A stretch of 64,000 nt of DNA from a virus (IMGVR_UViG_3300031718_000005:4280-68279), one strand, 5' to 3'; positions 47-62,104 are shown, numbered from the stretch's first letter. Notes: generated by a model not told the origin, from the sequence alone. Numbers and translations are program-made.

Positions 47-118
47 ATGAGCGCCAATCAACTCATGGACAAGCTTCTGCCAAACCGCTCCAGTTATTTC
101 GCGAGCCGCACCAAATGA
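47..118 (+). CDS. tiny ORF (23 aa) wedged between an ORF entering from the left edge and terL
   Basis: The ATG at 47 overlaps the TGA (48-50) of the upstream ORF. Its own TGA (116-118) overlaps the terL ATG (115-117). Below the ORF-track cutoff, read by eye. Confidence 0.25.
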   Translation: MSANQLMDKLLPNRSSYFASRTK

Positions 119-3997: not shown

Positions 3998-6460
3998 ATG
4001 GAAGCTATAGCCCCAGCCCCTCCCGCACCATCGGTGGACGAATTAATCGCTCTGCTCGAAAATCCCGTCAAGGACGTGATGCGGACGGAAATGTCGGACG
4101 AAAACGACCCCGACCGCGTATGGATACTGCGCAAGAACTTCAACAACTACATCTACTCCAGGGGCCTTCAGAATTACGCTTCGCTGCTGACCCAATCGAT
4201 TCTGGCTCTGACCTCGCAGGGCGGTCCAGGTGTGGATTTAGGAGCGGACGAGGAGCCGACCGGACTCTACGACTACACCCAAAAGCACTATACCGGGTTC
4301 AAGCGCAAGTTTGTCGCTGTGATCGGAAACCGGCTGGCGAACATGATCGCCGTGCCGAACAATTCCAACGACGAGGAAGGAGTTCGGGCAACACGCTCGG
4401 CAAACCCGGCTGCGCTTTACCTGAGACAGAAGTGCGATCTGGAATCGAAGTTTCTGGATCAGGCGGCACGCATCTTCGACTACGGGACAACGTTCTGGCA
4501 TCTCGATTGGGTTGAGGATGGCGATAAGTACGGTTATCGCGACGAACCACAGCATCAAATTCAGCAGCAGCCCCTCGGAAACGCACGGTTCGATTGTCCG
4601 AACTGCGGAGCTAGTGTCCCGTCAGACGGTAACCCGCAAACTGCACCACCAGTTTGTCCGCAGTGCGGGACACAACTAGGCCCTCAGCACTTCGTTCCGC
4701 CTACGATGGTTCCGACTCCCGTACAGACCGGAACGAAGAAAGTCCCCAAGGGAGCGCTGGAGATCGACCTGAAAGACGCAAACGAAATCTCCGTGCCACT
4801 AGATTCGACTTGTGTTGACGATTGCGATTGGCTCCGATGGGACCGCGAAGAACCAAAAGGGAAATTGCTTCGCAAGTACGGCAGAGACAAATTGAGCGAC
4901 TTTGATGGTAACGATCAAGGGCATGATACGGTGTCATCGCAACTCGGAGAATTCATCCGATCTGCCATGGCCTCGCCGATTGGCTTAGTTCGGCCTAATC
5001 GTCCTAACCGATGGACATGTTCTGACATATGGTGGACGCCCAACCAATATGAATTGGTGCCAGACAAGACGGCCCGCGAAACGCTTAAATCCCAATTTTC
5101 AGATGGGGCCAGATTTTGTTTCGTCAAGGGAAAGTTGGTTGACCTGAAGGCTGAAAAACTTCAGGACCGCTGGCAGGAAACCAAACCTGAACCGGCCCCG
5201 CGAATCATGACCGACGCCTTAGGGGACGAATGGACGGAAACGACCGACATCGCCAACAACGTCATGAACCAGTGCGAGCAGAACGTGGCCCGGAGCAATT
5301 TGCCACTGTTCATGAACAGCAGCAAGGTCGATTCCGACGCTTGGGCTAATAGGAACACGCTTCCTGGCGATGCGTTCTTTATCCTGCCACGTGCTGGTCG
5401 TGCGCTATCGGACGAAATTCATCAACCGCAGTCTTTGATGTTCTCCGAACAAGCCCCGCAATTTCGCGCCGGTGTAATTGAGGACGCGAAGTCCAATACC
5501 GGCCTGGTAGACGCTATCTGGGGCGGTGGTGAACCTGATCCCACGGCGCGTCAGACGTTGCTCAAAACCAATCAGGCTTTGATGCAGTTGGGAACGCACT
5601 GGACGCAGATCCGTAAGTCTCTTGAGAAACTGATGCTGAAGGCGTGTAAGTTGCTTTCCCAGTACTCCGAGGGAGTCATCGAGTTTTCCAAGAAAAACCA
5701 GTTTGGCAGATTTGACACGTTGAGTTTCACCACGGAAGACCTGAGAAGTGATTCCTATCATTTCGAAGCCGACGAAGCCATTCCGGTTAATTGGGGGCAG
5801 CAACGCGATCAGTTGATGTGGCTGTTAGGACAAATCGGCGAGAATCCGCAATTGGCGACAATGATGGGCTTGACCGATCCGTTCAACGTGTTCGAGTTCA
5901 AGCAACTGATCGGTATTCCAGGGATGCACACCCCGCAATTCGACGCCCGCGAGAAGTGCATGGATGTGATCGCCACTCTAATTTCCGACGTATCCGCTGG
6001 GCCAAATGGCGAGCGTCCCAAGCAACAAATGCAACCCGGACCTCCCGGCCCAGATGGTCAACCCGGCCCTCCGCAACCAACCGTACAGCCAGATTGGGAA
6101 GACGATCACGCTTTCTTCTCGATGGCGGTGAAAGCGTACCTGTTGGACAATTCCGACTTGAAAACCAGCAGCCCTGACGCTTACGCCAATATTCAGGCTT
6201 ATGGGCAGGCGCAAGACGCCATGGCCAATCCGCCGCAACCTCCAGCGGAGCCTAAGAAGACCTTCTCGGTGTCACTAAAGGGTTCCGATGTTGGTGTTCA
6301 AGCCGTCCAGGACATGCTGACTAAGGAAGGTATGCTAGACCCGAACACCCCAGTAGAATCGGATGCCGACAAGAAGTTAGCGCAGACAGATCAGATGAAC
6401 CAACAGCAATTGGCCGCGCAAACGGCTATGCCTGCCCCTAACGGTGCAGCGATTCAGTAG
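3998..6460 (+). CDS. portal protein (by size and position)
   Basis: 820 aa, the first large ORF after terL and followed by scaffold-like and capsid-like genes. Contains a CPNCG...CPQCG zinc-ribbon insert. No portal motif verifiable by eye. Confidence 0.7.
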   Translation: MEAIAPAPPAPSVDELIALLENPVKDVMRTEMSDENDPDRVWILRKNFNNYIYSRGLQNYASLLTQSILALTSQGGPGVDLGADEEPTGLYDYTQKHYTGFKRKFVAVIGNRLANMIAVPNNSNDEEGVRATRSANPAALYLRQKCDLESKFLDQAARIFDYGTTFWHLDWVEDGDKYGYRDEPQHQIQQQPLGNARFDCPNCGASVPSDGNPQTAPPVCPQCGTQLGPQHFVPPTMVPTPVQTGTKKVPKGALEIDLKDANEISVPLDSTCVDDCDWLRWDREEPKGKLLRKYGRDKLSDFDGNDQGHDTVSSQLGEFIRSAMASPIGLVRPNRPNRWTCSDIWWTPNQYELVPDKTARETLKSQFSDGARFCFVKGKLVDLKAEKLQDRWQETKPEPAPRIMTDALGDEWTETTDIANNVMNQCEQNVARSNLPLFMNSSKVDSDAWANRNTLPGDAFFILPRAGRALSDEIHQPQSLMFSEQAPQFRAGVIEDAKSNTGLVDAIWGGGEPDPTARQTLLKTNQALMQLGTHWTQIRKSLEKLMLKACKLLSQYSEGVIEFSKKNQFGRFDTLSFTTEDLRSDSYHFEADEAIPVNWGQQRDQLMWLLGQIGENPQLATMMGLTDPFNVFEFKQLIGIPGMHTPQFDAREKCMDVIATLISDVSAGPNGERPKQQMQPGPPGPDGQPGPPQPTVQPDWEDDHAFFSMAVKAYLLDNSDLKTSSPDAYANIQAYGQAQDAMANPPQPPAEPKKTFSVSLKGSDVGVQAVQDMLTKEGMLDPNTPVESDADKKLAQTDQMNQQQLAAQTAMPAPNGAAIQ

Positions 6461-6469
6461 AAAGGATTT

Positions 6470-7783
6470 ATGGAAACAGCATTAGCAACACCCGCAGCAG
6501 CAGAAGCGCCCGTCTCGGCACCAGCGGAGACGATGGACAGCGCCCTTAACGATCTGGCGAACATGATGACCGGCACGGAGGAAACGCCTCCAGGCGAATC
6601 CCCTACCGCTCCACCGCCATCGGGCGAACCAGTTCCCGCGCATCCAGGCGGGGAAGGCCCAAGTTCGGAAGCCTCCCCCGCAGCGCAACCAACCGACGCT
6701 CCTGTCGAATACCAACTCTCCCCAGATGGCAATCACTACCTCGTGCCCAAGGATAAGATCGGCGATGTTGGGCAACTCCCGGCGGTGAGGGAATATTACG
6801 CCAAAGTCCAAGAGAAGTTTCCGACAGTGGGCGATGCTGAGGAAGCCTATAGCCGCGCCTCGCAGTTCGGCCTGATGAACACAGATTTCCTGTACGGCGA
6901 TGATAACGGCATCGACAACTTTCTTGCTTACCTCACAGGCAAAGGGGTTGACCCGGCCTATCCCGATCTGGCGAACCAGTTCAAGGGCAGCTTCGTCAAG
7001 ATGGCCCAGCGGATGCCCGATACCCTTCGTTCGGTAGATCCGCAGGCGCACTACAATTTCACCGATTCGCTCATCAAGCAGGAGATAGACGCTGCCTATT
7101 CTGCCGCCGCTGAATCAGGTAACCCCGAGCATTTTAAGGCCGCGCAATGGCTGGATTACGGCTGGAACGGGAAATACCGCACCGAACTCGGTAAGCCCGA
7201 TCCTGCCGCCCAGCAGACCAATGTACTCACCCAGAGGGAGCAAGGCATACAACAGCGTGAATCGCAATTACTTGAACGAGATTGGACGGCTTTCAATTCA
7301 TCGAAACTGGAAGGCGCGAAGTGGCAAGAGTTCAACGCCGAACTCGACCGAACCTTAGCCCCAGTCAAAGACAAGTACGACGCTACTATCTGGCCGCATG
7401 TGCGCGACGGAATCCGCCGTGACGTATTGGCCAAGATGACCAAGAACGAAGCCTGGGCCGGTCAGCACTCCGGTTCTCTCCGTGGACTGAAGGCCACCTA
7501 CGATCAACTCTGGAAAGCCGGTAAGTCTCCCGATGCGTTGACGACAAGTGCCAGAGCATATATCAACGATTTCATGATCCAAGCTCGCCGTGCGATACCC
7601 GAGGTATCCAAGGCATTACTCTCCAAGACTCCTCCCGCCAAGGCAGGAACTCCGCAGCAAGTCCCGGCAGCAACGGCGCGTCCTAACACGCCCGCCCGCG
7701 CTCCCAATGGGCAATTCGTAGAACAACAGAAAGCAGATTACGAAAAAGAGGTTGAAGCCACCGCCGGGATGCTCGGCTGGTAA
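6470..7783 (+). CDS. scaffolding-like protein
   Basis: 437 aa. Ala/Pro/Glu-rich disordered N-terminus and a helical charged body. Lies between the portal and capsid-size genes. Confidence 0.55.
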   Translation: METALATPAAAEAPVSAPAETMDSALNDLANMMTGTEETPPGESPTAPPPSGEPVPAHPGGEGPSSEASPAAQPTDAPVEYQLSPDGNHYLVPKDKIGDVGQLPAVREYYAKVQEKFPTVGDAEEAYSRASQFGLMNTDFLYGDDNGIDNFLAYLTGKGVDPAYPDLANQFKGSFVKMAQRMPDTLRSVDPQAHYNFTDSLIKQEIDAAYSAAAESGNPEHFKAAQWLDYGWNGKYRTELGKPDPAAQQTNVLTQREQGIQQRESQLLERDWTAFNSSKLEGAKWQEFNAELDRTLAPVKDKYDATIWPHVRDGIRRDVLAKMTKNEAWAGQHSGSLRGLKATYDQLWKAGKSPDALTTSARAYINDFMIQARRAIPEVSKALLSKTPPAKAGTPQQVPAATARPNTPARAPNGQFVEQQKADYEKEVEATAGMLGW

Positions 7784-26102: not shown

Positions 26103-27239
26103 ATGGCATCAATCAAGCGCGGAAAATGGGAAAGAGCTGCGGCGAAGAGAGCCGCCGCCGATCCCGCCGCTATTCCGCCCTCACCACCGCCCGATCAACA
26201 AATCGCGATGGTCAAGAGCGGCATCGACATAAACCGTGGCAACGCGAACCAAATTCCTTTATCGGACGTAGGACACTCGGAAGCCCAGCAACGTGCCGAT
26301 CAGTTCGCAGCTAAAGGCGGAGTAGATCAAGTTGTCATCCCAACTAGTGAACGGGCCAAGGAATCAGCGGCACCGATTATCGCGGCGAATCCCCAAGCCC
26401 AGGTAAAGAGCGATCCAAATCTCGAAGCGCATGCCCAAGGCAACCTGGAAGGCCAGCCCATGGACATGGTGAAGGGCCAACTGAGGGATCTGATGAAGAA
26501 CAATCCCCAGCGGATCATTCCCGGCCAAGGTGCGCTGTCGTCACGCAAAGGTGAATCCTTCGACCAAGCTAGATTGCGGATTCTCCCGGCGATCCGGGGA
26601 GTCATGCAGCAACTCGCGGAGGGAATGCAGAAGAATCCAGACCACAAGATCGTAGTACCAATTCACTCCTCGGTCATCAAGCTAACGAAGGCGTGGCTAG
26701 CCAACGGAGCGCCTGACGATTTTTCGGTGAACCCGTCCGTGATGGACAAGGAAACGTCGGAGACTCCTGGTGGGGTAGACCATCTCTTCCCGAACAAGAG
26801 GGGTGAGTGGGAAACGAACGAAGTCAACATGCGCGATCCGCAACAACTGGGAGCGGGCATCTATCTTCTCCGCCACGCTCCGACGCCGATTAATAAAGAG
26901 ACTTACGAGCAAGGCGCAGCCCAGCAACAAGCCTTAGCGCAGATGCACAAACACATTCAGTCGGGCGATTTCAGACGAGCCAAGAGCTTTGCTGAACAAG
27001 CTTCCAAAGCCGGAATGAGCGATCAGGACATTGAGAAGTACGTGGATAACGCCATTCCAGACCGCGACACCGTTTCGCAGTATCCCATGCCTCGGTTACT
27101 TGCAACCATCGCCGCCGCAGGGCCGCAGAAGAAACAAGAACTCGCCCCGCTGTTACAAAGCCACTTTGGAAACATCGACCAATTACCGGAGGACGTGCGT
27201 GGTCCGTTCGCCGAGCACCTAGCCCAGATCGCTTCCTGA
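26103..27239 (+). CDS. virion-module protein with degenerate histidine-phosphatase (PGAM)-like domain
   Basis: 378 aa. The order of PLSDVGHSEAQ, VVIPTSERAKESA, NLEG, KGESFDQARLR and VVPIHSSVIK mimics the PGAM fold. KSG replaces the RHG motif. Confidence 0.4.
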   Translation: MASIKRGKWERAAAKRAAADPAAIPPSPPPDQQIAMVKSGIDINRGNANQIPLSDVGHSEAQQRADQFAAKGGVDQVVIPTSERAKESAAPIIAANPQAQVKSDPNLEAHAQGNLEGQPMDMVKGQLRDLMKNNPQRIIPGQGALSSRKGESFDQARLRILPAIRGVMQQLAEGMQKNPDHKIVVPIHSSVIKLTKAWLANGAPDDFSVNPSVMDKETSETPGGVDHLFPNKRGEWETNEVNMRDPQQLGAGIYLLRHAPTPINKETYEQGAAQQQALAQMHKHIQSGDFRRAKSFAEQASKAGMSDQDIEKYVDNAIPDRDTVSQYPMPRLLATIAAAGPQKKQELAPLLQSHFGNIDQLPEDVRGPFAEHLAQIAS

Positions 27240-30758: not shown

Positions 30759-32261
30759 ATGGCATTCGCCACCTCACGCTCGCTCACTATCGACCACACC
30801 AAGGTATCGGGATCGGATCAGTCCAATTTCCCGGTCTTGGTGAAGATCGTCAACGGTTCGTTCGCCACGGTAGCAAACAGCGGACTGATTCAGCACACAG
30901 TAACTCAATCCGGGGGCAACCCAATCACCATGCCCGCTGATCTTATCTTTACCTCGGATTCGGGCGGGGCAACAAAGATACCGTGGGAATTTGAATCATA
31001 CGACGGGACGACTGGAACACTTTACGCCTGGGTGTTGATCGCCACCGTCTCACACACAGTAGATACTGTCTTCTATGTTTTCTACGGGGATGCGACGGTT
31101 TCGACTCAGCAAAACACCGGTAGCTTCTCTGTGGCTAACGTCTGGGACGCGAACTTCAAGGGAGTCTACCATTTCCCCGATGGCACGACGCTGAACGCGA
31201 AAGATTCTACCGGCAACGCCAACAACGGGACTCTTACTGGTTCGAGTTTGGCTACAGCCGGGAAAGTCGATGGATGTTTCGACGTTCATCCTAATCCTGA
31301 CTACGCATCGGTCGGAACCCTGGGACTGACTACTACCTTTACCTTCAGTTTGTGGATCAAACCGGCAGATTTGAGATTTGGTGGATTGATCGCCCAGCAA
31401 GCACATGGTGGGGTAGAGTTCCGAACCAACAACGACAACACTCTTAGCCTACTTAGTGCTCAAGTATCCAATCTAGCCACTTCGAGCGGGACGGTGACTA
31501 CTGGGGCTTTCCATTATGTCGTGCTCACCTACGATGGGTCCACCGCCAAATTCTACATTGATGGGGCGGCATCTGGAAGTACGAGCGTTTCGTTCACGTT
31601 CGGATCGGGTATATACGATATCGGTCGCAGTGGAGGGGCGGGAGACTTTTTTTCCGGTCCTCTTGATGAAGCGCGGATATCGAGTACAATCCGATCCGCC
31701 GACTGGATCACCACTGAGTTCAACAATCAGAACTCACCCAACACGTTCATCACACTGGGCGGGGCATTAACCACACTCGCTCCAAGTGCCGCGTCGTTTA
31801 CGTTTACCGACCTGACGCCCGCGCTGACGCGGAAACTCCAGCCCGCTTCAGCGTCCCTCACATTCACTGGCGCAACCCCGAGCGAAAGACAAACGCTTCA
31901 CCCTGCTGCTGGTAGTCTTACATTTACAGGCGAAACTCCAGTAACCGGCGGTGTTCTACGGCCATCTGCGGCAACATTGGCTTTCGCTGGACGAACCCCA
32001 ACACTGAAGACCGGGCTACGGCCAAACGCCGCAAGTTTCGTCTTGACGGGCGATGGTCCGCACTTACGGTTAACGCTTCACCCTACTCCCGCAGTGATTA
32101 TGTTCCATGGCTTGATGCCATCGCTTACGGGAGCTTCCTTTGCCAATGCGCGAAGATTTACACCGATAGACGCCGATCCCCGAGCATTGGCTGCGGTCGA
32201 TGCCGTGAACCGTAAACTCAAACCGCTGAATTCCTCACCACGTTCTATGGAGAAAGTATGA
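30759..32261 (+). CDS. LamG/concanavalin-like (DUF2341-type) fibre protein
   Basis: 500 aa. FYIDGAASGS and DEARISSTIRSADWITTEFNNQNSP are typical of Laminin_G_3/DUF2341 proteins. The C-terminus has about six 20-aa repeats. Confidence 0.75.
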   Translation: MAFATSRSLTIDHTKVSGSDQSNFPVLVKIVNGSFATVANSGLIQHTVTQSGGNPITMPADLIFTSDSGGATKIPWEFESYDGTTGTLYAWVLIATVSHTVDTVFYVFYGDATVSTQQNTGSFSVANVWDANFKGVYHFPDGTTLNAKDSTGNANNGTLTGSSLATAGKVDGCFDVHPNPDYASVGTLGLTTTFTFSLWIKPADLRFGGLIAQQAHGGVEFRTNNDNTLSLLSAQVSNLATSSGTVTTGAFHYVVLTYDGSTAKFYIDGAASGSTSVSFTFGSGIYDIGRSGGAGDFFSGPLDEARISSTIRSADWITTEFNNQNSPNTFITLGGALTTLAPSAASFTFTDLTPALTRKLQPASASLTFTGATPSERQTLHPAAGSLTFTGETPVTGGVLRPSAATLAFAGRTPTLKTGLRPNAASFVLTGDGPHLRLTLHPTPAVIMFHGLMPSLTGASFANARRFTPIDADPRALAAVDAVNRKLKPLNSSPRSMEKV

Positions 32262-39686: not shown

Positions 39687-40030
39687 GGCTCACCGCCGTG
39701 CATGACATCTTCTGCCAGCTTCTCGCGGGATCGCTGGGCGCTGGGAAGCGAATCAAGAGCGGCACGCAATTCCAATACCGGGCATGTGCTTTCGTGCTGA
39801 ACCTCGTCTGGCGTTGCTTCATCCGTCCTGCCACAGTATTCGCAGTGTAGAAAGTTTCCGTGCGCGTCGGCCTCGTTTGAACCTTGCCAGCCGATCATCG
39901 GGCGCAATCTCTTCAACACGCCTTCCAGTTTCACGATGCGTCGTTTAGCCGCTTCGGCGTTGTTATTGGCAAGTTTCAGATAGCTTTCCTGGAAGTATTT
40001 CTTGCCGTCTTTTTCGATCCAGTCGCTCAT
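39683..40030 (-). CDS. hypothetical protein
   Basis: 115 aa, ATGA-coupled, with a CEYCGR...H..CP Cys/His cluster. Confidence 0.55.
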   Translation of the reverse strand: MSDWIEKDGKKYFQESYLKLANNNAEAAKRRIVKLEGVLKRLRPMIGWQGSNEADAHGNFLHCEYCGRTDEATPDEVQHESTCPVLELRAALDSLPSAQRSREKLAEDVMHGGEP

Positions 40031-45291: not shown

Positions 45292-46182
45292 ATGTTTGAC
45301 ATCATCAATCGATATACGCAAGCTGTGCTTTACCACAGCGAGACTGCCACTACCGTCAAAGAAGCTGTCGTGGCGGCTGTCGCTACTAAAGCCAACCTGC
45401 GCGATGCCGACCTGGGCGGTGCCTACCTGCGCGGTGCCAACCTGCGCGATGCCGACCTGGGCGGTGCCAACCTGGGCGGTGCCTACCTGCGCGGTGCCAA
45501 CCTGCGCGATGCCGACCTGGGCGATGCCGACCTGGGCGGTGCCGACCTGCGCGATGCCAACCTGGGCGGTGCCAACCTGGGCGGTGCCGACCTGCGCGGT
45601 GCCAACCTGCGCGGTGCCAACCTGCGCGATGCCAACCTGGGCGGTGCCAACCTGGGCGGTGCCTACCTGCGCGGTGCCGACCTGCGCGATGCCAACCTGG
45701 GCGGTGCCGACCTGGGCGGTGCCTACCTGCGCGGTGCCAACCTGCGCGATGCCGACCTGGGCGGTGCCAACCTGCGCGATGCCAACCTGGGCGGTGCCGA
45801 CCTGGGCGAATTCAGGACCGATCTAATTGCTGAGATTCTGAAACTGCCTGATGAGCTTGAAAATCTTCGCGATCAGTTGATTGCCGGTAAAATCAGCGGC
45901 TCGACCTATACCGGCGAGTGTGCTTGTTTGGCTGGGACAATCGCTAAGCATCGTGGGCTCACTACAATCTCAAGCGGAGACGTAATGTCGGACAATGCCG
46001 TAAAGTTCCAGGTTGACAGCTCTTCGCCTCGTGAAAAATGGTTCCTGAATGTCCAGAAGGGCGACACGCCGGAAACAAGCCAGATCGCCAAGATCACGCT
46101 CGGCTGGATTGAGGAGGCGATTGCGATACGCGATCACATCCGAGCAGTACCGGCGAAGCTGCTGGAGGAGATAAAGCGATGA
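45292..46182 (+). CDS. pentapeptide-repeat protein with distinct C-terminal domain
   Basis: 296 aa. 28 consecutive A(N/D/Y)L(R/G)(G/D) pentapeptides, then a roughly 120-aa Cys-containing domain. Confidence 0.85.
   Translation: MFDIINRYTQAVLYHSETATTVKEAVVAAVATKANLRDADLGGAYLRGANLRDADLGGANLGGAYLRGANLRDADLGDADLGGADLRDANLGGANLGGADLRGANLRGANLRDANLGGANLGGAYLRGADLRDANLGGADLGGAYLRGANLRDADLGGANLRDANLGGADLGEFRTDLIAEILKLPDELENLRDQLIAGKISGSTYTGECACLAGTIAKHRGLTTISSGDVMSDNAVKFQVDSSSPREKWFLNVQKGDTPETSQIAKITLGWIEEAIAIRDHIRAVPAKLLEEIKR
45391..45810 (+). repeat. 28 tandem 15-bp units
   Basis: Every unit reads GCC-(A/G/T)AC-CTG-(C/G)GC-G(G/A)(T/A). Only four positions vary. Confidence 0.95.
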
Positions 46183-46765: not shown

Positions 46766-47011
46766 TTGAGTTCATGGGAGGTTCTATTGGCTGAGCAATT
46801 GGTTGAGGATCGCATCGCGGCGGCGAGACTGGCTCGGGCGAGAGCTTTGGCGGTCTTGGTAAAGAACGATTGCATTCGGCTCTTGATCGGGTTGACCGAC
46901 GACGAATGGCAAAACATGGCGGTTCAGGCCAAGATCAACGCTCAGAAGCCGCCTAGCGAAGAGACGCGGCAGATGTTACTGGATATCGTGAAAGGGTGGA
47001 AGTGCGAATGA
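46766..47011 (+). CDS. hypothetical protein
   Basis: 81 aa with a non-ATG start. Its stop overlaps the erf ATG. Confidence 0.4.
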   Translation: MSSWEVLLAEQLVEDRIAAARLARARALAVLVKNDCIRLLIGLTDDEWQNMAVQAKINAQKPPSEETRQMLLDIVKGWKCE

Positions 47012-47784
47012 GCGAACAGCAAAACCTTGTGGTGCAGGACGAGCCGAAGGCAGTAGTTCCGATCACCATCTACGAGATATTCGCGCAACTAGCCCGCGAT
47101 CCTAACGTTGACCCAGTTCGCATTCAACAGTTGATGGAACTGCAAGAGCGGGCTGAGGCACGGCAAGCCGAGAAGGAGTTCATTGCCGCCATGAACCGCT
47201 TGCAGCCGAAACTGCCACGGATCACAAAACAGGGCAAGATCGCATTTGAGTCTCAGCGTACTGGCCAATCGCAGAACACGCCCTATGCTCGGTTCGAGGA
47301 CATCGACGCCAAGATCCGACCATTGCTGCATGACGAGGGGTTCTCAATCAGTTTCGGCACGGCTGCGCTAGAGAAGGGCGGCATTCTCATTACAGCCACA
47401 TTGAGCCACGCGGCGGGGCACAGTCGCACAGAGTCCATGCCGTTGCCGTTTGACACCAGCGGCAGCAAGAACAGCATACAGGCCGTGGGAAGCACAATGG
47501 CGTACGGGAAACGGTATTTAATTTGCGCCATGCTGAACATCATCACCGTGGGTGAAGATGACGACGGCAACGCTGTCTCGTTCATCGACCAACAGCAACT
47601 CAACAGCATCATGGACCTGATTATCGCTTCCGAGATGGACGAAACTTCTCAGGCCGCGTTTCGCAAGCTGATGAACGTGGAGCGGATTGAGGATATCCGC
47701 AAATCTAACTATCCGAAGGCCATGTCCGCGCTGCACGCCAAGTTCAAGAAGTGGCGGCAAGAACATCCCGAGGTTTCTGTGTGA
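47008..47784 (+). CDS. erf: Erf-family single-strand annealing protein
   Basis: TPYARFEDIDAKIRPLLHDEGFSISF and AVGSTMAYGKRYLICAMLNI fit the ERF family pattern. Paired with an exonuclease. Confidence 0.75.
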   Translation: MSEQQNLVVQDEPKAVVPITIYEIFAQLARDPNVDPVRIQQLMELQERAEARQAEKEFIAAMNRLQPKLPRITKQGKIAFESQRTGQSQNTPYARFEDIDAKIRPLLHDEGFSISFGTAALEKGGILITATLSHAAGHSRTESMPLPFDTSGSKNSIQAVGSTMAYGKRYLICAMLNIITVGEDDDGNAVSFIDQQQLNSIMDLIIASEMDETSQAAFRKLMNVERIEDIRKSNYPKAMSALHAKFKKWRQEHPEVSV

Positions 47785-48494
47785 AGTATTTACCCTACGA
47801 ACAGAGAAGTCGCGAGTGGTTCGCTGCCAGGTTGGGAATTCCTTGCTCCTCGGAGTTCCACAAGATTATCACTCCGAAGACTATGAAGGTATCCAGCCAG
47901 GCACCGGCCTACGCTCATCGTCTGCTCGCAGAGTGGGTGAGCGGAGCGCAGTTAGACGCTTACGAATCCCCACACATGATGCGGGGTCAAGAGCTTGAAG
48001 CGGATGCGATAGCGGCATACGAACTTCTAACCGAAACCGAAACCACTCCGGGTAACTTCGTCACCACCGATGACGGAATGTTGGGTTGCTCGCCGGACAG
48101 GTTGATCGGCGAGGTAGGCGACCTCGAATTGAAATGCCCAGCTTTGCAAACTCAGATCGGCTTCGCCATCGACGGCTTAGACGATGAGTACAAGTGCCAG
48201 GTGCAGGGTCGCATGCTGATCCACGGCCGAGAATTCTGCGACCTGTTCTCTTACCATCCGCTCGTATCCATCCCGCCGATTCGCCTACATCGCGACGAGA
48301 AGTTTATCGGTGCTATGCGCCCAGTGCTCGATACATTCGTTGAGCAACTACTGAAGGCACGGGAACTACTAGAGCAGCGCTACGGTCCATTCACGCGCAA
48401 CGAACCGAAACCAGCAGCGGCCGACATGCTAGGGGTGAGCGACAAGGATTTGCAGGATATTCTCAAGGCCAGGGAGATTGTAGAAAAATGGTGA
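47781..48494 (+). CDS. YqaJ-like (lambda Exo-type) recombination exonuclease
   Basis: RSREWFAARLGIPCSSEFHKI, GCSPDRL and DLELKCP give a PD-(D/E)xK signature. The GTG at 47781 overlaps the erf TGA. Confidence 0.75.
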   Translation: MKYLPYEQRSREWFAARLGIPCSSEFHKIITPKTMKVSSQAPAYAHRLLAEWVSGAQLDAYESPHMMRGQELEADAIAAYELLTETETTPGNFVTTDDGMLGCSPDRLIGEVGDLELKCPALQTQIGFAIDGLDDEYKCQVQGRMLIHGREFCDLFSYHPLVSIPPIRLHRDEKFIGAMRPVLDTFVEQLLKARELLEQRYGPFTRNEPKPAAADMLGVSDKDLQDILKAREIVEKW

Positions 48495-56437: not shown

Positions 56438-56656
56438 TCAAGTACGGGAATTTAGTTTCTCGCGGCGTGCTTCGAGTGCGGCTAGCTTCATGCCAGCTTC
56501 AATCACAGCCAAGTATGGCACGGCGAATGCGGTACGACGCCCCTTCTGTCGGATTAGGAGCTCGTATGGTTCAAGCGTGACGATCAGCGGTTTCCCACGG
56601 TAGACGGCGCTGGTTTCGGCACGGGATACGGTTTTTCTTTCAGCTAGGCGAGTCAT
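56438..56656 (-). CDS. hypothetical protein
   Basis: 72 aa from an internal ATG, ATGA-coupled. Confidence 0.5.
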   Translation of the reverse strand: MTRLAERKTVSRAETSAVYRGKPLIVTLEPYELLIRQKGRRTAFAVPYLAVIEAGMKLAALEARREKLNSRT

Positions 56657-56868
56657 GATTGCACCTCGCATGCTGGGCATGGCCTGCCGTTTGGTGCTTC
56701 GATAATCGTCTCAGGTGTGTACGGAACACCAGCGGTAGACTCGCGCATTCTACGGATGACAATGTGGCCGCAACCCGTGCGAACCTTGTATGGCTGCGTG
56801 GAACCGACCATAAAAGTATCGGCCAACAGTTCGCGCATGAAGCGGTCAGAAGGTAGGTTGTCAGGCAT
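56653..56868 (-). CDS. hypothetical protein
   Basis: 71 aa with a CGH...CPAC cluster. Confidence 0.5.
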   Translation of the reverse strand: MPDNLPSDRFMRELLADTFMVGSTQPYKVRTGCGHIVIRRMRESTAGVPYTPETIIEAPNGRPCPACEVQS

Positions 56869-57187
56869 GTTGGTTTACCCTCATCGTGCCGAGAGTCGTA
56901 TACAGCCCGGTAACGTCGGTAAAAAAGCGCTGGAGATCGTCAAAGTACACATCATCGAGCGTACGCACTGGAACCGCTTCCATGTTGCGGCAGCGGAGGA
57001 ATTCCATTGTGTAGGTGTCGGACGGCTCCAGCGTGATTCGCAAGTGTGAAGCTCCGGCACTATTGCGCCTGAGTTTCATGGTTAGCGCATTCTCCGAGCC
57101 GATCAGGTTGTAACTTCCGGTCATTGCGAGAAAACGCCTTCCGCCTAACTGTTCCAGAATCGTATTAGCAACTTGTAGATCAGCCAT
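56861..57187 (-). CDS. hypothetical protein (ILEQLGG..F..MTG type)
   Basis: 108 aa from the ATG behind GGAGGTG. I associate this pattern with plasmid and phage accessory genes. Confidence 0.55.
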   Translation of the reverse strand: MADLQVANTILEQLGGRRFLAMTGSYNLIGSENALTMKLRRNSAGASHLRITLEPSDTYTMEFLRCRNMEAVPVRTLDDVYFDDLQRFFTDVTGLYTTLGTMRVNQHA

Positions 57188-57189
57188 GT

Positions 57190-58002
57190 TTAGTTCACCT
57201 CCACTTCGCCAGCTAGTTCTTGAGCCTTGGCGATTGTGCCGGAGTTGCGGTAGGCCTGCCACGCGCCGATAGTTGGCGACCAGCGGAAGCCGGAAGACTT
57301 TAGCGAAGTACGAACCTCGGCAGATGGCTTGCCGGGGAAGAACAGCCTTACGCGGTTATCAGCGGGGCAATCCTCAAGGCGTGCGTTGCTCCGCTCGGTA
57401 ACTGTTTCTTCCGTGGCTTGATTGCGCGAGACTCCCTCTAGCCGTAGCTTCATGCGCCGAATGTTCGCGTTGTTGTTGATTAGCTCGTAATCGGCAAAGC
57501 CAATGCGTCCGCAGAAGTCAGGCTCTAACAGTTTGCGTGCGATCGCGTCCGGTAGGCCAAAGGCCATTATTGCGGTGACTTGAGCCTCGATTCCAGCGGC
57601 CTTATGCTTGCGAATAGCCGCGTTTACACCGCGCATTTGCTCCTGGTGCTTTTCGGCCTTGGAGATCTTTTCGCGCAAGCGCTGCGTTGCGTCCGAGTCG
57701 CCCGACATGATCGGCCTGAGTTCGGGATGCAGCGCCTTACGCATCGCTGCTTTGGCACGTCCCAAGAAATCCAACAGGTCTTCCCGGCGCTTATCAACAA
57801 CCCTATTACGTTTCTCCATCCGTCGCGATGGGAAGTTTGAAGGACCGGCAATTATGACACTGTAGGTTCGCGACTGGCTCGCGAGATAAGCCCGATACCG
57901 CTTGGCGTACCCATCGCGGAAACGTGCGAACTCTTCATTAAGCGTGGCCTGTTTCTCTGGTGTGGTCGCATCGGCTAGAAGCTCGGCATAGATCCCGACC
58001 AT
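57190..58002 (-). CDS. DUF3560-like protein
   Basis: 270 aa. C-terminal LFFPGKPSAEVRTSLKSSGFRWSPTIGAWQAY resembles the DUF3560 module as recalled. Confidence 0.45.
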   Translation of the reverse strand: MVGIYAELLADATTPEKQATLNEEFARFRDGYAKRYRAYLASQSRTYSVIIAGPSNFPSRRMEKRNRVVDKRREDLLDFLGRAKAAMRKALHPELRPIMSGDSDATQRLREKISKAEKHQEQMRGVNAAIRKHKAAGIEAQVTAIMAFGLPDAIARKLLEPDFCGRIGFADYELINNNANIRRMKLRLEGVSRNQATEETVTERSNARLEDCPADNRVRLFFPGKPSAEVRTSLKSSGFRWSPTIGAWQAYRNSGTIAKAQELAGEVEVN

Positions 58003-58035
58003 AGTTTCAGCGTATCCAGCACGCGAAATCGTTCA

Positions 58036-58151
58036 TAATGAGAGTAGACATTAAAAGCTCCATTCTTTGAGTGGTTACGGGCCTGTGTTGGCGCTAACCA
58101 GCACTCGCCCGGTGTTTACCGGTTTAGGCTTTCGCCAAAGTCTTACGGTTC
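58036..58151. repeat. gene-junction segment, copy 1
   Basis: 58109-58151 matches 60164-60206 at 39 of 43 positions. AGTAGACATT.A.A..CTCCA at 58047-58066 matches 60091-60110. Confidence 0.75.
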
Positions 58152-58321
58152 TCCACGAGCCGCGAGGCTTCGATCCACACTTGACCGCAACCGGCGACTG
58201 GCTCGACAAGCAGGCGGAAGCGCCCGTAGCTCGTCTTAGTCTCGATTACCTTGCAGTCGATTATGAATACTCCAGCTTTCACCAACACCAGATCGCCAGC
58301 GGTGTGTTGTGTGTTGCTCAT
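58124..58321 (-). CDS. hypothetical protein ending LVENRKTLAKA
   Basis: 65 aa, ATGA-coupled. Its C-terminal 11 aa are shared with the T5orf172 protein. Confidence 0.5.
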   Translation of the reverse strand: MSNTQHTAGDLVLVKAGVFIIDCKVIETKTSYGRFRLLVEPVAGCGQVWIEASRLVENRKTLAKA

Positions 58322-58458
58322 AGAAGCGGCTCCGCAAGTTTGTTAAGCTTGTAGCAGGCACGGGTAACGTCGGCAATGATAAAGTCGCGCATGGAGCGGT
58401 TACCGGCATCTGTAGCGGCGGCGTGGACTAGGCGGTATGTTGGTTTGATCGTGTTCAT
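58318..58458 (-). CDS. 46-aa ORF
   Basis: Read by eye: MNTIKPTYRLVHAAATDAGNRSMRDFIIADVTRACYKLNKLAEPLL. ATGA overlaps at both ends. Confidence 0.4.
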   Translation of the reverse strand: MNTIKPTYRLVHAAATDAGNRSMRDFIIADVTRACYKLNKLAEPLL

Positions 58459-58862
58459 GCGGACACCTCGACCACGGCAACCAAGCTCTTGATATTATTC
58501 AATTCTCTTTTGGCCAAGCGCATGACGGCCTTAATTGCGCTCTGTGGAGTCCTTCCGTCACCAACCCACCTGCCGCCAGGAAAATCTCTGGATTCACTCA
58601 AGAAAGCGTGGTAGCCCAAACCGCATGGATCGAGCGGGTAAACCTTGAGGTGGCCGGTTGAGTCGGTAGCGCCGTAGTGCCAGCCAATATTTTCCCACAC
58701 ACGCGCTACCCAACCTTTGCCCAGCGATTTAACCAACGCGGCGGCATCGGCACTGGCCTGCTGGTATTCAGCCCATGTACAGTCACCACCGCAAGCGGGA
58801 GCGCAGTAAATCTTGCCTCGCCTGACAGCGTTCCAGGATAACTCTGTTCGTTTGCTTTTCAT
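58455..58862 (-). CDS. hypothetical protein
   Basis: 135 aa, Trp/Gly-rich, with CAPACGGDC. Confidence 0.55.
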   Translation of the reverse strand: MKSKRTELSWNAVRRGKIYCAPACGGDCTWAEYQQASADAAALVKSLGKGWVARVWENIGWHYGATDSTGHLKVYPLDPCGLGYHAFLSESRDFPGGRWVGDGRTPQSAIKAVMRLAKRELNNIKSLVAVVEVSA

Positions 58863-58903
58863 CTCAGTTTCCTTTCGTTAGTTGATTAGTGCTCTGCTTG
58901 CCT

Positions 58904-59827
58904 TCATAAATTCCTTACGATCTCATCCCAGTTATCCGAAACCTGTTCGAGTCGTGCCTTGGCGTCGTTCTCGCGCTCCACGGCTGCTTCCCAAGCCTCT
59001 ACGTCGCGCAGGGCGAACACCTCGTCACGAATCAGCGTGTTCAGCACAGAAGGTTCCAGGGCGTCTAGTTCCCACGATTCGTCGCCATACTCGTTGATGT
59101 ACCCAGCAGCGCGGCTATCGGTGATCTTCGCCGGATTCGGCGGCGGTTCGTACTCGCGCACCTGGTTCATGTTGAGCGCGATACGGTTGATGACCTTGCC
59201 AACCTTGCGCGGGCTGATACCGTTCAGGTGATGACGAATGAACAGCGAAACGCGATCCTCAATATCGCGCGTCATGTCGATGCCGCTAGGATCGTGGTCG
59301 CCAAGGTGGATGATATTAACCCGCTTGCCTTGCTGTACTTTCTTCAGCAGGCGCATACCGGCGACCCACATTTCAGATTGCGAAGTGTAGCCACGGCAGG
59401 AGAAGTACGGAACGTCGAGCGGTTCGCAGGCGACTTGCAGCACGCCCACAAGCGCATCTTTTTCAACCCACACCTCGACGTAGTTGGTTTGCGTGCTCCA
59501 CTTGTCATGCTGGAACTGCGAAGCGCAGGCGGCAACAATATCTTTCGGCGAATCCCAATGAGCGTTCTTACGCAGGTTTCGCGTACGGTCTGTGATGTGG
59601 TCCCAATCAACCAATCCGGCGAGACGCGCATCGTTGATGGTCGAACCGAGACGCTTATACTCAGAGTCTTTGTTGGCAATCAACCCACGGCTGACGAACT
59701 GGTAGTAAAGCTGACGAAGCGTCAGGTCGTAGCCTTGCGCTGCGTACTCTTCGAGAATGCGGTTCGCCGTCTCAATCGTTTTGAGCGATGCCGCGTTAAA
59801 AGCGTGCTCAATGTAGCAGATTTTCAT
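58904..59827 (-). CDS. stand-alone Topo VI subunit A / Spo11-like protein (Mini-A type)
   Basis: 307 aa. LTLRQLYYQF (5Y-CAP Tyr motif), VWVEKDAL (Toprim Glu) and LGDHDPSGIDM (Toprim DxD). Confidence 0.6.
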   Translation of the reverse strand: MKICYIEHAFNAASLKTIETANRILEEYAAQGYDLTLRQLYYQFVSRGLIANKDSEYKRLGSTINDARLAGLVDWDHITDRTRNLRKNAHWDSPKDIVAACASQFQHDKWSTQTNYVEVWVEKDALVGVLQVACEPLDVPYFSCRGYTSQSEMWVAGMRLLKKVQQGKRVNIIHLGDHDPSGIDMTRDIEDRVSLFIRHHLNGISPRKVGKVINRIALNMNQVREYEPPPNPAKITDSRAAGYINEYGDESWELDALEPSVLNTLIRDEVFALRDVEAWEAAVERENDAKARLEQVSDNWDEIVRNL

Positions 59828-59854
59828 ACTACCTCCCCAGCTTTGAGAATCTTG

Positions 59855-60099
59855 TCAGCAGCACAACTGGATGGCCTTCTCGCCCTTCTTGACGAATCGC
59901 CCTAATTCCTTCCAGTGCATGAAAGTGCCGATAGGTCCGAGCGGGATGTTTCGCGCATCACATTGCGTCAATGGCTAAGACTTGGTTACCAAAGCTGTAA
60001 TTGTGAAACCGCGCATACGCCGCTGACAGCTTGCCGGGTTCGCTGACGACTTGCTCTAGCAATTTTTGTCCAATTCGAGTTAGTATTTTCAGTAGACAT
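59855..60099 (-). pseudogene. frameshifted, truncated ArdC-N-like (ssDNA-binding antirestriction domain) remnant
   Basis: Two frames together read ...FHNYSFGNQVLAI / QCDARNIPLGPIGTFMHWKELGRFVKKGEKAIQLCC-stop. The ATG frame stops after 37 aa. Confidence 0.45.
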
Positions 60100-60206
60100 T
60101 GAATCCTCCATCGATTCGTGTTAAGGAACTAGCTCCGGTGCGACCCGCGAGTCAGTTCCGGTTACGGTTTAGGCTTTCGCCAAAGTCTTGCTGTTCTCCA
60201 CGAGCC
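60085..60206. repeat. gene-junction segment, copy 2
   Basis: See 58036-58151. Confidence 0.75.
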
Positions 60207-60657
60207 AGTTTCTAAAGAACACGTCTCGATCATCGGCGATACGAACGCCGTCGATAAATTTCTTAACTGCGCCTTCGATGCGAAACCATTCGCCAACAGC
60301 GCAATACGAGGAAAAGACGCGGTGTACTTTGCCTTCATCGGCTGAGGAAGCGGCACACCACATGAGATCACTAAAGCGCAGCGGGGAAGGCAATTCCTTG
60401 GGAATTTTGCCCAAAGACAAGGAACCTAACCGCTTTGCCGGATCGTTGCTGAATCCGATCTTAACGAATGGTCCAGAGGTAGCGAAGTACACGAAACCTT
60501 CGCGAATCTTAGGCTTTCTTCCGTCCTTATTCCAGTATGGTGAGCCACACCGAGGACAACGCAACGGCTCGACGGCTTCGCGCAACATCCAAACGTGTTG
60601 GCAGCGCAAACAGGTACGCTTCAGGGTTTCTAGGGCGCTTGTGAGGGATTCAGTCAT
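60169..60657 (-). CDS. T5orf172 (GIY-YIG-related) domain protein with N-terminal zinc ribbon
   Basis: CLRCQH...CPRCGSPYW, then GFVYFATSGPFVKIGFSNDPAKRLGSL. Confidence 0.65.
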   Translation of the reverse strand: MTESLTSALETLKRTCLRCQHVWMLREAVEPLRCPRCGSPYWNKDGRKPKIREGFVYFATSGPFVKIGFSNDPAKRLGSLSLGKIPKELPSPLRFSDLMWCAASSADEGKVHRVFSSYCAVGEWFRIEGAVKKFIDGVRIADDRDVFFRNWLVENSKTLAKA

Positions 60658-60850
60658 ACCTCACAAAGCTCCAAAGCTCCAAACTAGCGATTACACGCCT
60701 GGCAGCTACGCATTCACGCATATCGACCGCAACGCTGTAAACACCACTCGCGCCGCGCGTATCGGTCTTTGTAACAAAACCGGCAACCGATAGAGCGTTA
60801 ACCACCCGGAGCACCACGAGCCAGCGACCGTCTGAGAATATTGTCTTCAT
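60650..60850 (-). CDS. hypothetical protein, first cistron of the operon
   Basis: 66 aa. The ATG lies 6 nt after a -10-like hexamer. Confidence 0.45.
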   Translation of the reverse strand: MKTIFSDGRWLVVLRVVNALSVAGFVTKTDTRGASGVYSVAVDMRECVAARRVIASLELWSFVRYD

Positions 60851-60885: not shown

Positions 60886-61423
60886 GCACAATCTCGCATA
60901 AATATCGCTGCGCGCCACCAAACCGCTGATTACAAACCAAATATAGTTTCAAATAGCCGCAAACCGCGTGTTTCGAGCGCGCCACGCAAGTAATTCTACT
61001 TGACACCACCACTAAACGTAATGAATACTAAGGCGTTACCACGCACACACGCCGCGCGTCACGGTTGCACCACTGGCGTCCAGCGCAGCAATCCCGCGCA
61101 TCACTCCCACCTGTGTCCCAAAACCAACTGACAGCCACTCTTAGCGTTACAGCGGTCCCGGTACGTATACTTTCCCGCACTAACCAGCTCCTCAGCAAAA
61201 TATCGCCACGTCACGCACTCGAGCTGGCAATACGCTATCCAGGGCGTTACGAATGGGGCGGCAATAAACGTCGTGTCCGCTATATGCGCGACCGGCTCGA
61301 TACTTCCCCAGTCTGCCTTGCCATTCGTGACGACTCCTGCTGGCGTTCGTCTCAAGCTGCTGTCTGCGCACCAGGTCCAGGATATTACGAGTCTCGCCTG
61401 TCGCAAGCCAGCGTCTAAAGCGT

Positions 61424-62104
61424 ATGCCTCAACTCCTCAACCCTCGCCACGAAGCTTTCGCCCAGCATGTCGCTATGGGCCTACCATACACGCAAGCTGC
61501 TAAACGCGCTGGTTACGCCCAATCAGTTGCTCACAACTCCGGTTCCCGCGTTCACAAGAATCCCAAGGTGCAAGCCCGCATCGAGGAGCTTAAAGCTTCC
61601 AAGTTCGCTATCGTCACTGGCACTGGCATCCGTACCAACATGGCCCGTGTTATCGCCATTGAGGACCGCTGGGCGCGTATGCGTATGATTATAAAGGAAC
61701 GCGCTGAGCATCCGTCCATGGAAGACGTGCCAGGTGGGCGCTCAGGGTTGCTCTGTGTAGACTACAAGACAGTTGGCTCAGGCGACATGGCGGTAATCAA
61801 GACTGTCTACAAGCTTGATGCTGCATTACTTAAGGCGTTACTTGAGCATGAAGAGAGAGCAGCAATCGAGTTAGGACAGCAGTCGATCCGTCACGAGACA
61901 TTCTCCAGTTCCGTGAGCCTGCGAGCGAATGGCAAGGAACTACACGGCACGATCGCCAGCCATCTTGACCAGTTGACCGAGGAACAGCGCAAGCTAGCGG
62001 CGCAGTTGATGCCGGGGTTGAAAGTGATGCTGAATGGCCACGGTGAGCCTACTGATAACAGCGATGTGATCGAAGCATCTGTTGAAAGCAAAGAAGATGA
62101 GTAG
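61424..62104 (+). CDS. terS: terminase small subunit (Terminase_2/P27-like)
   Basis: N-terminus LNPRHEAFAQHVAMGLPYTQAAKRAGYAQSVAHNSGSRVHKNPKVQARIEEL. Confidence 0.75.
   Translation: MPQLLNPRHEAFAQHVAMGLPYTQAAKRAGYAQSVAHNSGSRVHKNPKVQARIEELKASKFAIVTGTGIRTNMARVIAIEDRWARMRMIIKERAEHPSMEDVPGGRSGLLCVDYKTVGSGDMAVIKTVYKLDAALLKALLEHEERAAIELGQQSIRHETFSSSVSLRANGKELHGTIASHLDQLTEEQRKLAAQLMPGLKVMLNGHGEPTDNSDVIEASVESKEDE

Follow-up and report, generated by a model that had tools for sequence, protein, structure and literature searches.

A Mini-A gene in the genome of an uncultured phage

The window analyzed here is a 64,000-nucleotide (nt) stretch of viral DNA (IMGVR_UViG_3300031718_000005:4280-68279) that makes up most of the ∼68-kb genome of an uncultured phage, and it carries on its minus strand a gene for a 307-residue protein resembling the A subunit of topoisomerase VI (Top6A). 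An earlier note on this DNA, which named no strand, had read the product as a stand-alone Top6A-like protein of the Mini-A class with three motifs in a set order, and the translated open reading frame (ORF) indeed contains LTLRQLYYQF (with R38 and Y42), VWVEKDAL (with E122), and LGDHDPSGIDM (with D177, D179, and G182) one after the other. A fourth signature that had not been listed there, ESWELDAL, occupies residues 250 to 257. Judged by this motif set, which goes far beyond chance, the ORF is a real gene. The identical protein (P0001) is found in the JGI, ENA, and Logan assemblies, in each case on contigs of ∼68 kb.

The protein matches PHROG 6247 (“DNA topoisomerase”) over its full length (residues 1 to 303; E = 2.7e-115). 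At least 8000 homologues are present in the databases, the best nonidentical one at E = 5e-146, and an exhaustive search returned at least 7,563 clusters at 50% identity with E ≤ 1e-3, with 1,201 at E ≤ 1e-30. By tblastn, proteins of Listeria phage LWP01 and of Pseudomonas phages JG054 and NP1 share 45 to 50% identity with the window protein over at least 96% of its length, and the same range of identity was observed for Brevundimonas, Roseobacter RDJL, Xylella/Xanthomonas, Salmonella SPN19, Microbacterium, Curtobacterium, and Pseudanabaena phages. Many of these homologues from cultured phages are annotated as “DNA topoisomerase.” The identity of the window protein to any other database protein does not exceed 74%, and that to any protein of a cultured phage does not exceed 50%.

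Mini-A proteins have been defined as virus-encoded proteins of ∼300 residues in which the 5Y-CAP domain lacks its N-terminal, B-subunit-binding part, with the motifs RxxY/FY, Glu plus DxDxxG, and a discriminating C-terminal box, xWELDAL, and with no B subunit (Takahashi et al. 2020, PMC7671362). All of these published features are present in the window protein. Beside the matching length and the truncated 5Y-CAP, it contains R-x-x-[YF]-Y in the form LRQLYY, the Toprim motif as VWVE122K and D177-H-D179-P-S-G182, and the xWELDAL (T2BI) box as S-W252-E-L-D-A-L257. The phage setting that the earlier note had proposed is borne out by genes for the large and small terminase subunits (TerL and TerS), a tail-fiber-like protein, Erf, and an exonuclease on the same contig.

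The absence of a B-subunit gene, also claimed before, holds for the ∼30 window ORFs that we scanned with Pfam, among which no GHKL, HATPase_c, or Top6B-type domain was found. These ORFs include all those of at least 400 residues except the large terminase (compared with PHROGs only) and a 402-residue methyltransferase (covered by precomputed Pfam labels), and no GHKL domain appears among the Pfam labels precomputed for the native contig. On the strength of these signatures, of the full-length PHROG match, and of the 45 to 50% identity to phage members, we conclude that the window gene encodes a genuine protein of the Mini-A subfamily, which is type IIB topoisomerase A-subunit-like. It is also a typical and unremarkable Mini-A: apart from its origin in an uncultured phage, nothing essential sets it off from the published family, and it adds supporting detail and no new kind of object. 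The family itself is already known, having been described in 2019-2020, included in PHROGs, and annotated in GenBank.

In the AlphaFold2 (AF2) model of the protein (predicted local distance difference test [pLDDT], 94.9; predicted template modeling score [pTM], 0.85), a winged helix is followed by a canonical Toprim domain, in which E122 closes β1 and the DxD motif follows β3. DSSP assigned helices to residues 12 to 30, 37 to 46, and 54 to 69 of the N-terminal domain, together with a wing. The winged helix thus begins at residue 12, and Tyr42 lies just 42 residues from the N terminus. In this model, the Toprim domain is followed by a C-terminal helical extension, which is a possible candidate for a dimerization element.

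Conservation across the family coincides with these motifs. In an alignment of 75 sequences, the invariant columns include R38, Y42, E122, K123, D177, H178, D179, P180, G182, and E253-L254-D255. We extended this alignment to 83 sequences by adding eight divergent members with 17 to 35% identity, drawn from Bacteroides, Cellulophaga, and Chryseobacterium phages, a haloarchaeal virus, and Rubrobacter and Streptomyces plasmids, and R38, Y42, E122, G146, S149, D177, and G182 were invariant down to 17% identity. Furthermore, four homologues (P0149, P0170, P0199, and P0244) carry inteins with Hint and LAGLIDADG domains located 1 to 3 residues before E122, at query positions 118 to 120 and at no fewer than two distinct points. 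Inteins favor the active sites of important DNA enzymes, and their position therefore marks the Toprim Glu motif independently.

Similarity to Top6A and Spo11 and the proposed chemistry

We compared the Mini-A alignments with a Top6A/Spo11 profile that combined the Spo11 and Top6A sequence from PDB alignments with 53 Top6A/Spo11 fragments. The Top6A fragments are 95 to 229 residues long, and the profile covers mainly the Toprim half, its CAP half consisting of two fragments plus yeast Spo11. Using hhalign, the narrow Mini-A profile matched this profile with E = 3.4e-3 and the widened one with E = 1.8e-4 (probability, 48%; 147 columns); a second profile-profile run gave E = 5.2e-4 over 201 columns. 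E122 and the DxD motif were in register with Top6A in each of these comparisons, and a relaxed alignment additionally paired TLRQLYYQ of Mini-A with TKRDAYYQ of Top6A, with Tyr, Glu, and DxD colinear. Among 32 controls (2 reversed and 30 column-permuted), the best reached E = 0.009 and a score of 25.2, compared with 36.4 for the true comparison. Since the true score beats all 32 controls, we consider the relationship between the Mini-A and Top6A profiles to be probably real but remote, in agreement with the literature. Alignment of the Mini-A profile to a single Spo11 sequence paired the DxD motif alone and was not significant. We do not claim membership of Top6A/Spo11 proper, because the Pfam thresholds were not reached and there is no B subunit.

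The window protein shares with Top6A and Spo11 (PDB 1D3Y, 2Q2E, 2ZBK, and 8URQ) the catalytic RxxYY, Glu, and DxD, in the same order and with similar spacing, as well as the remote profile similarity (E of about 2-5e-4). It differs from them in being ∼100 residues shorter, in lacking the N-terminal B-binding CAP segment and a GHKL partner, and in carrying a WELDAL box and, at the C terminus, a helical tail. Topo VIII, a plasmid-borne type IIB enzyme, is likewise encoded by mobile elements and has a truncated 5Y-CAP. In contrast to the window protein, however, Topo VIII possesses a fused or split B (GHKL-transducer) moiety and an RVELNAM box.

With the family identity established, the invariant residues suggest a chemistry and the gene context alone suggests a biological role. 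We consider it fairly probable (roughly 60%) that Mini-A is a homodimeric, Mg-dependent enzyme that breaks and rejoins DNA through a tyrosine link and serves phage replication or recombination. Tyr42 in the winged helix would act as the nucleophile, positioned by Arg38, and E122, D177, and D179 of the Toprim domain would bind Mg2+. By analogy with Top6A and Spo11, two protomers would assemble on duplex DNA, and each strand would be cut by the tyrosine of one protomer together with the Toprim metal site of the other, producing 5′-phosphotyrosyl links. The break would then be either resealed or passed to recombination enzymes. Because Mini-A has no ATPase gate, ATP-dependent strand passage would not be possible, and the likeliest activity would be an ATP-independent one, namely, nicking or double-strand cleavage with possible relaxation.

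Several observations weigh against this reading. Pfam, NCBIfam, and PDB phmmer searches with the single window protein gave no match, and TP6A_N (PF04406) and TOP6A-Spo11_Toprim (PF21180) remained short of their gathering thresholds, with no match to the window protein even at E ≤ 10. Hidden Markov model (HMM) profiles of the 75- and 83-sequence alignments yielded 0 matches among PDB sequences. Across the 75 members, all Pfam matches were below threshold, with DUF2399 in 10 members, TP6A_N in 7, DUF7281 in 4, DUF4177 in 3, TOP6A-Spo11_Toprim in 2, and every other family in 1. A Foldseek search of the PDB with the AF2 model returned nothing at E ≤ 1e-3 and no Top6A, Spo11, or JetD structure in the top 50, but only generic Toprim proteins (2fcj and 1nui). 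Furthermore, we found no experimental study of any Mini-A in the literature, and reviews up to December 2024 (PMC7671362 among the sources) call its function unexplored. Many window ORFs are without annotation and may hide a replication protein or a partner, and the heterogeneous gene context leaves any specific role weakly supported.

Among these points, the silence of Foldseek is uninformative and deserves little weight, because a search of BFVD gave noise-level matches only and also missed obvious phage homologues of Mini-A. The profile and structure searches that the earlier note had proposed thus did not place the protein in an unrelated family, but neither Foldseek nor Pfam connected it to Top6A above threshold, and that link comes only from profile-profile comparison with controls.

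The generic Toprim hits of Foldseek and the uniformly empty HMM-to-sequence searches, together with hhalign probabilities of just 10 to 48% across runs, could also be taken as signs of convergence, with Mini-A combining a generic winged helix and a generic Toprim domain in a family that is not a type IIB relative. We regard this explanation as highly improbable. The hhalign score lies above that of every control, and the E value improves with profile diversity, from 3.4e-3 to 1.8e-4. Moreover, RxxYY, Glu, and DxD follow one another in the same order and at similar distances in both groups, and few Pfam families besides TP6A_N and TOP6A-Spo11_Toprim match more than one member.

The prominence of DUF2399, the JetD Toprim family, among the subthreshold Pfam matches (10/75 members; best E = 0.0029) points to another alternative, in which Mini-A would act as a Toprim nuclease by hydrolysis alone, in the manner of Wadjet JetD/MksG or of the OLD family, degrading host or competitor DNA or processing ends with no covalent tyrosine intermediate. 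The absence of both an ATPase and a religation-coupled gate would suit such an enzyme, as would the GIY-YIG nuclease gene that adjoins Mini-A. JetD and MksG also share with the window protein a CAP-like plus Toprim architecture and the lack of an ATPase domain of their own. However, JetD acts with the JetABC complex of the SMC (structural maintenance of chromosomes) type in host defense, whereas the window gene is phage-borne, its product has no DUF2399 match, and it has no SMC-type or jetABC/mksBEF neighbors; in the family, too, no SMC/JetABC genes are associated with Mini-A. JetD is not known to have a catalytic Tyr, whereas R38 and Y42 are invariant in all 83 Mini-A sequences, a degree of conservation that a dispensable tyrosine would hardly show. 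We consequently consider a hydrolytic nuclease unlikely and favor the tyrosine-linked enzyme.

Gene context and possible roles

We surveyed the surroundings of Mini-A in 80 IMG/VR loci as well as in cultured-phage, plasmid, and metagenome loci, using ORFs within 4 kb of the gene; clustering comprised 1,096 ORFs from 86 loci, representing 51 dereplicated lineages. No neighbor family among these clustered ORFs occurred in more than 7/51 lineages, and thus no conserved partner (“Mini-B”) emerged. Recurrent neighbors were an XRE-type helix-turn-helix (HTH) protein and helicases of the SNF2, UvrD, and DEAD types. In annotated phages, Mini-A is found among genes for ligase, a RecA-like AAA_24 ATPase, RecB, helicase, DNA polymerase, ThyX, and ribonucleotide reductase (RNR). 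With crude probes, a helicase was detected within 6 kb of Mini-A in 13/51 lineages, a polymerase or primase in 5/51, and nucleotide-metabolism genes in 3/51. The closest relatives (56 to 67% identity) have essentially Mini-A as the sole gene in common with the window phage, and we take Mini-A for this reason to travel alone, as a single-gene cassette.

The possibility that Mini-A tracks the DNA-hypermodification genes ThyX, QueE, and FolE was considered and rejected, as such genes lie nearby in 3/51 lineages only. Downstream of Mini-A in the relative that encodes P0004 (67% identity) lies a protein-tyrosine-phosphatase (PTP)-like gene (loci L008/L009, positions 6103 to 6567; PTP/DSPc in Pfam), a curious neighbor given that phosphotyrosyl links to DNA are expected of the Mini-A enzyme.

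Top6A and Spo11 require B-type partners in vivo, and Mini-A might likewise form a true type II topoisomerase only together with a second subunit, either an unrecognized Mini-B encoded elsewhere in the phage or a host ATPase. The many unannotated ORFs of the window leave room for such a gene, and Mini-A of JG054 overlaps at its 3′ end with a gene for an AAA_24 ATPase. The AAA_24 probe, however, matched one lineage only, and no neighbor family in the survey described above was present in more than 7/51 lineages. The missing GHKL domain in the window and the closest relatives that share only Mini-A with the window phage argue in the same direction, as does the truncated CAP domain of Mini-A, from which the N-terminal, Top6B-binding segment is missing (PMC7671362). 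We thus hold such a two-subunit enzyme to be improbable.

In the window itself, PHROG and Pfam scans and probes found no recognizable polymerase, primase, helicase, or replication initiator. Because no replication protein is recognizable, we suggest that in this phage the proposed breaking-rejoining enzyme may supply breaks or ends for the Erf/exonuclease recombination module. The presence of Erf and an exonuclease without a polymerase, primase, or helicase fits a break-initiated, recombination-dependent mode of replication, or else an initiator role of the type proposed for skuldviruses of Asgard archaea (bioRxiv 10.1101/2021.07.29.453957). In the latter case, Mini-A would be a site-specific replication initiator that nicks the origin and stays 5′-linked, like the HUH rolling-circle Rep, and the window does resemble the skuldviruses in having no recognizable replication gene. 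Against this, many Mini-A phages encode a polymerase, a primase-helicase, or both, so that Mini-A is not generally the sole replication protein, and no origin-like repeat array was seen beside the Mini-A gene. An initiator function consequently has a low probability in our view.

A more far-reaching version of the break-supplying role is that Mini-A is a self-sufficient viral “Spo11,” a homodimer that makes protein-linked double-strand breaks in the phage's own DNA without a B subunit or ATP, with exonuclease resection and Erf annealing then starting recombination-dependent replication. In this complete form, we consider the proposal quite unlikely. If it were true, Mini-A would show the type IIB/Spo11 cleavage core in its ancestral form, as a protein acting alone.

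Among phage protein families that combine a distinct catalytic signature with a role so far only proposed, Mini-A is one of the largest. Its members occur in phages of Proteobacteria, Firmicutes, Actinobacteria, Bacteroidetes, and Cyanobacteria, archaeal viruses, and Streptomyces plasmids. What Mini-A does bears on the way in which phage DNA is cut and resealed when no ATP-driven topoisomerase is at work, and on a possible origin of the Spo11/Top6A cleavage core in a viral enzyme that acted alone. The question of function belongs to the Mini-A family rather than to the window locus, and the Pseudomonas phages NP1 and JG054, Listeria phage LWP01, and Salmonella phage SPN19 offer better experimental systems.

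Distant Mini-A-like genes (26 to 30% identity) are common on Streptomyces plasmids (plasmid hits H33 to H45; loci L097 and L098). Several of the carrier plasmids are linear replicons, with the Mini-A-like gene located 0.5 to 15 kb from the record end, and on one plasmid the gene lies directly downstream of a giant DUF3560 protein gene. It is conceivable that these plasmid homologues have a telomere- or end-related role as 5′-linked proteins.

Anatomy of the Mini-A block and of the phage

Within the phage genome (Table 1), Mini-A is part of a minus-strand block (positions 56438 to 60850) that is divergent from the small-terminase gene and convergent with plus-strand genes. The apparent 340-nt “intergenic” region upstream of Mini-A is filled by a decayed ArdC-N gene, whose frameshift-corrected peptide matches Pfam PF08401 (ArdcN) at 32.1 bits, with a cutoff of 22.6. 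The N-terminal domain of ArdC is a single-stranded-DNA-binding, antirestriction-type domain. The earlier note had described both nuclease-like and antirestriction-like neighbors; the nuclease is indeed there, as the GIY-YIG gene upstream, whereas the antirestriction element is this frameshifted pseudogene and not an intact gene. By its Pfam matches, the GIY-YIG gene probably encodes a homing-endonuclease-like nuclease, and a homologue of it flanks Mini-A in another locus (L013). The 135-residue ORF downstream of Mini-A had no tblastn match in 98 related loci and hence is not kept beside Mini-A elsewhere.

Table 1. Features of the window discussed in the text, in order of position
Feature	Position	Strand	Basis
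Large terminase (TerL)	115-2604		PHROGs
His_Phos_1 (histidine-phosphatase-superfamily) protein	26103-27239		Structural-gene block
Laminin_G_3/ConA-like lectin protein	30759-32261		Structural-gene block
Erf	46996-47784		Annotation scan of window ORFs
Exonuclease	47751-48494		Annotation scan of window ORFs
270-residue ORF after downstream repeat	57190-58002	minus	Matches phrog_6744 and phrog_19458; without Shine-Dalgarno site
Direct repeat (∼115 nt), downstream copy	58043-58161	minus	Repeat search and alignment
135-residue ORF, directly downstream of Mini-A	58455-58862	minus	No PHROG or Pfam match
Mini-A gene (stop codon included)	58904-59827	minus	307-residue ATG-to-stop ORF; PHROG 6247 match; AF2 model
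C-terminal helical extension (residues 259-306)	58910-59053	minus	Helices 259-273, 276-298, and 300-306 in model; pLDDT above 95
WELDAL (T2BI) box	59057-59074	minus	Within Toprim-domain stretch of Mini-A
Toprim domain (residues 112-257)	59057-59494	minus	β1-E/β3-DxD topology in model; invariant columns; hhalign; inteins in homologues
D177-x-D179 codons	59291-59299	minus	Toprim domain of Mini-A
Glu122 codon	59462-59464	minus	Toprim domain of Mini-A
N-terminal winged-helix (5Y-CAP-like) domain (residues 1-110)	59498-59827	minus	DSSP of AF2 model; invariant R38/Y42; hhalign
Tyr42 codon	59702-59704	minus	RxxYY motif inside winged-helix domain
Arg38 codon	59714-59716	minus	RxxYY motif inside winged-helix domain
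Shine-Dalgarno site of Mini-A	59831-59838	minus	Upstream sequence read directly
ArdC-N-like pseudogene stub, directly upstream of Mini-A	59855-60099	minus	Three-frame translation; two frameshifts
Direct repeat (∼115 nt), upstream copy	60091-60206	minus	Repeat search and alignment
GIY-YIG-type (MUG113/T5orf172) gene, upstream	60169-60657	minus	Pfam PF13455 at 32.7 bits; PF10544
Small terminase (TerS)	61424-62104		Annotation scan of window ORFs

Mini-A is bracketed by the two copies of the direct repeat, which are 2,045 nt apart and share a 42-nt core with 95% identity. Each copy comprises an ORF end (...VEN[RS]KTLAKA*, in the upstream copy ...VENSKTLAKA*), a spacer, a Shine-Dalgarno (SD) site, and an “MST” start, and the start within the upstream copy reads ATGTCTACT. 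Because of this repeat, a 65-residue and a 162-residue ORF have the same C-terminal 10 residues. Between the copies lie the ArdC-N stub, Mini-A, and ORFs of 135, 46, and 65 residues, and the downstream copy is followed by a dead start (MSTLIMNDFACWIR*) and then by the 270-residue ORF, whose 5′ end is probably damaged. The sequence of the whole Mini-A/repeat block is identical in the independent Logan assembly. In its arrangement, the repeat-bracketed block looks like a recombination scar, which would have arisen when a Mini-A cassette was acquired into or beside an ArdC-N-containing gene. A homologue of the 270-residue ORF is located upstream of Mini-A in locus L040. A relationship of this ORF to the DUF3560 protein that precedes Mini-A on the Streptomyces plasmid was also considered and was dropped, as it had no tblastn support.

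Mini-A had been described previously as part of an early operon with a leaderless promoter. The leaderless reading is contradicted by a canonical SD sequence, GGGGAGGT, that ends 3 nt before the ATG, and the minus strand yielded no sigma-70-like promoter. As promoter and terminator counts were at or below those in shuffled sequence, the timing of transcription is not readable from the sequence, and the term “early” is not supported. A GC-rich 22-nt motif, CAC(T/A)C(G/A)CGCCGCGCGT(A/C)(T/A)CGGT, recurs with 82% identity at positions 60745 to 60766 and 61044 to 61065, within and next to the region from which the Mini-A block and the small-terminase gene diverge, and less well (73%) at positions 58102 to 58123. 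This motif is a possible operator or regulatory site.

As for the remainder of the phage, TerL is followed by a long block of structural genes, which are mostly without annotation and include the tail-fiber-like protein. Two DNA methyltransferase genes are present as well. Neither tRNA genes nor close relatives among cultured phages or Escherichia coli genomes were found for this phage, and the tRNA and E. coli comparisons pointed to no host. The TerS and TerL genes lie ∼7 kb apart, with ∼20 small ORFs between them. Over the 24-kb stretch that was searched at the nucleotide level (positions 40000 to 64000), the sole similarity to cultured phages is a pentapeptide-repeat gene at positions 45292 to 46182, which shares 84 to 90% identity over ∼350 to 400 nt with P22-like phages of Salmonella and Edwardsiella (epsilon34, g341c, and others).

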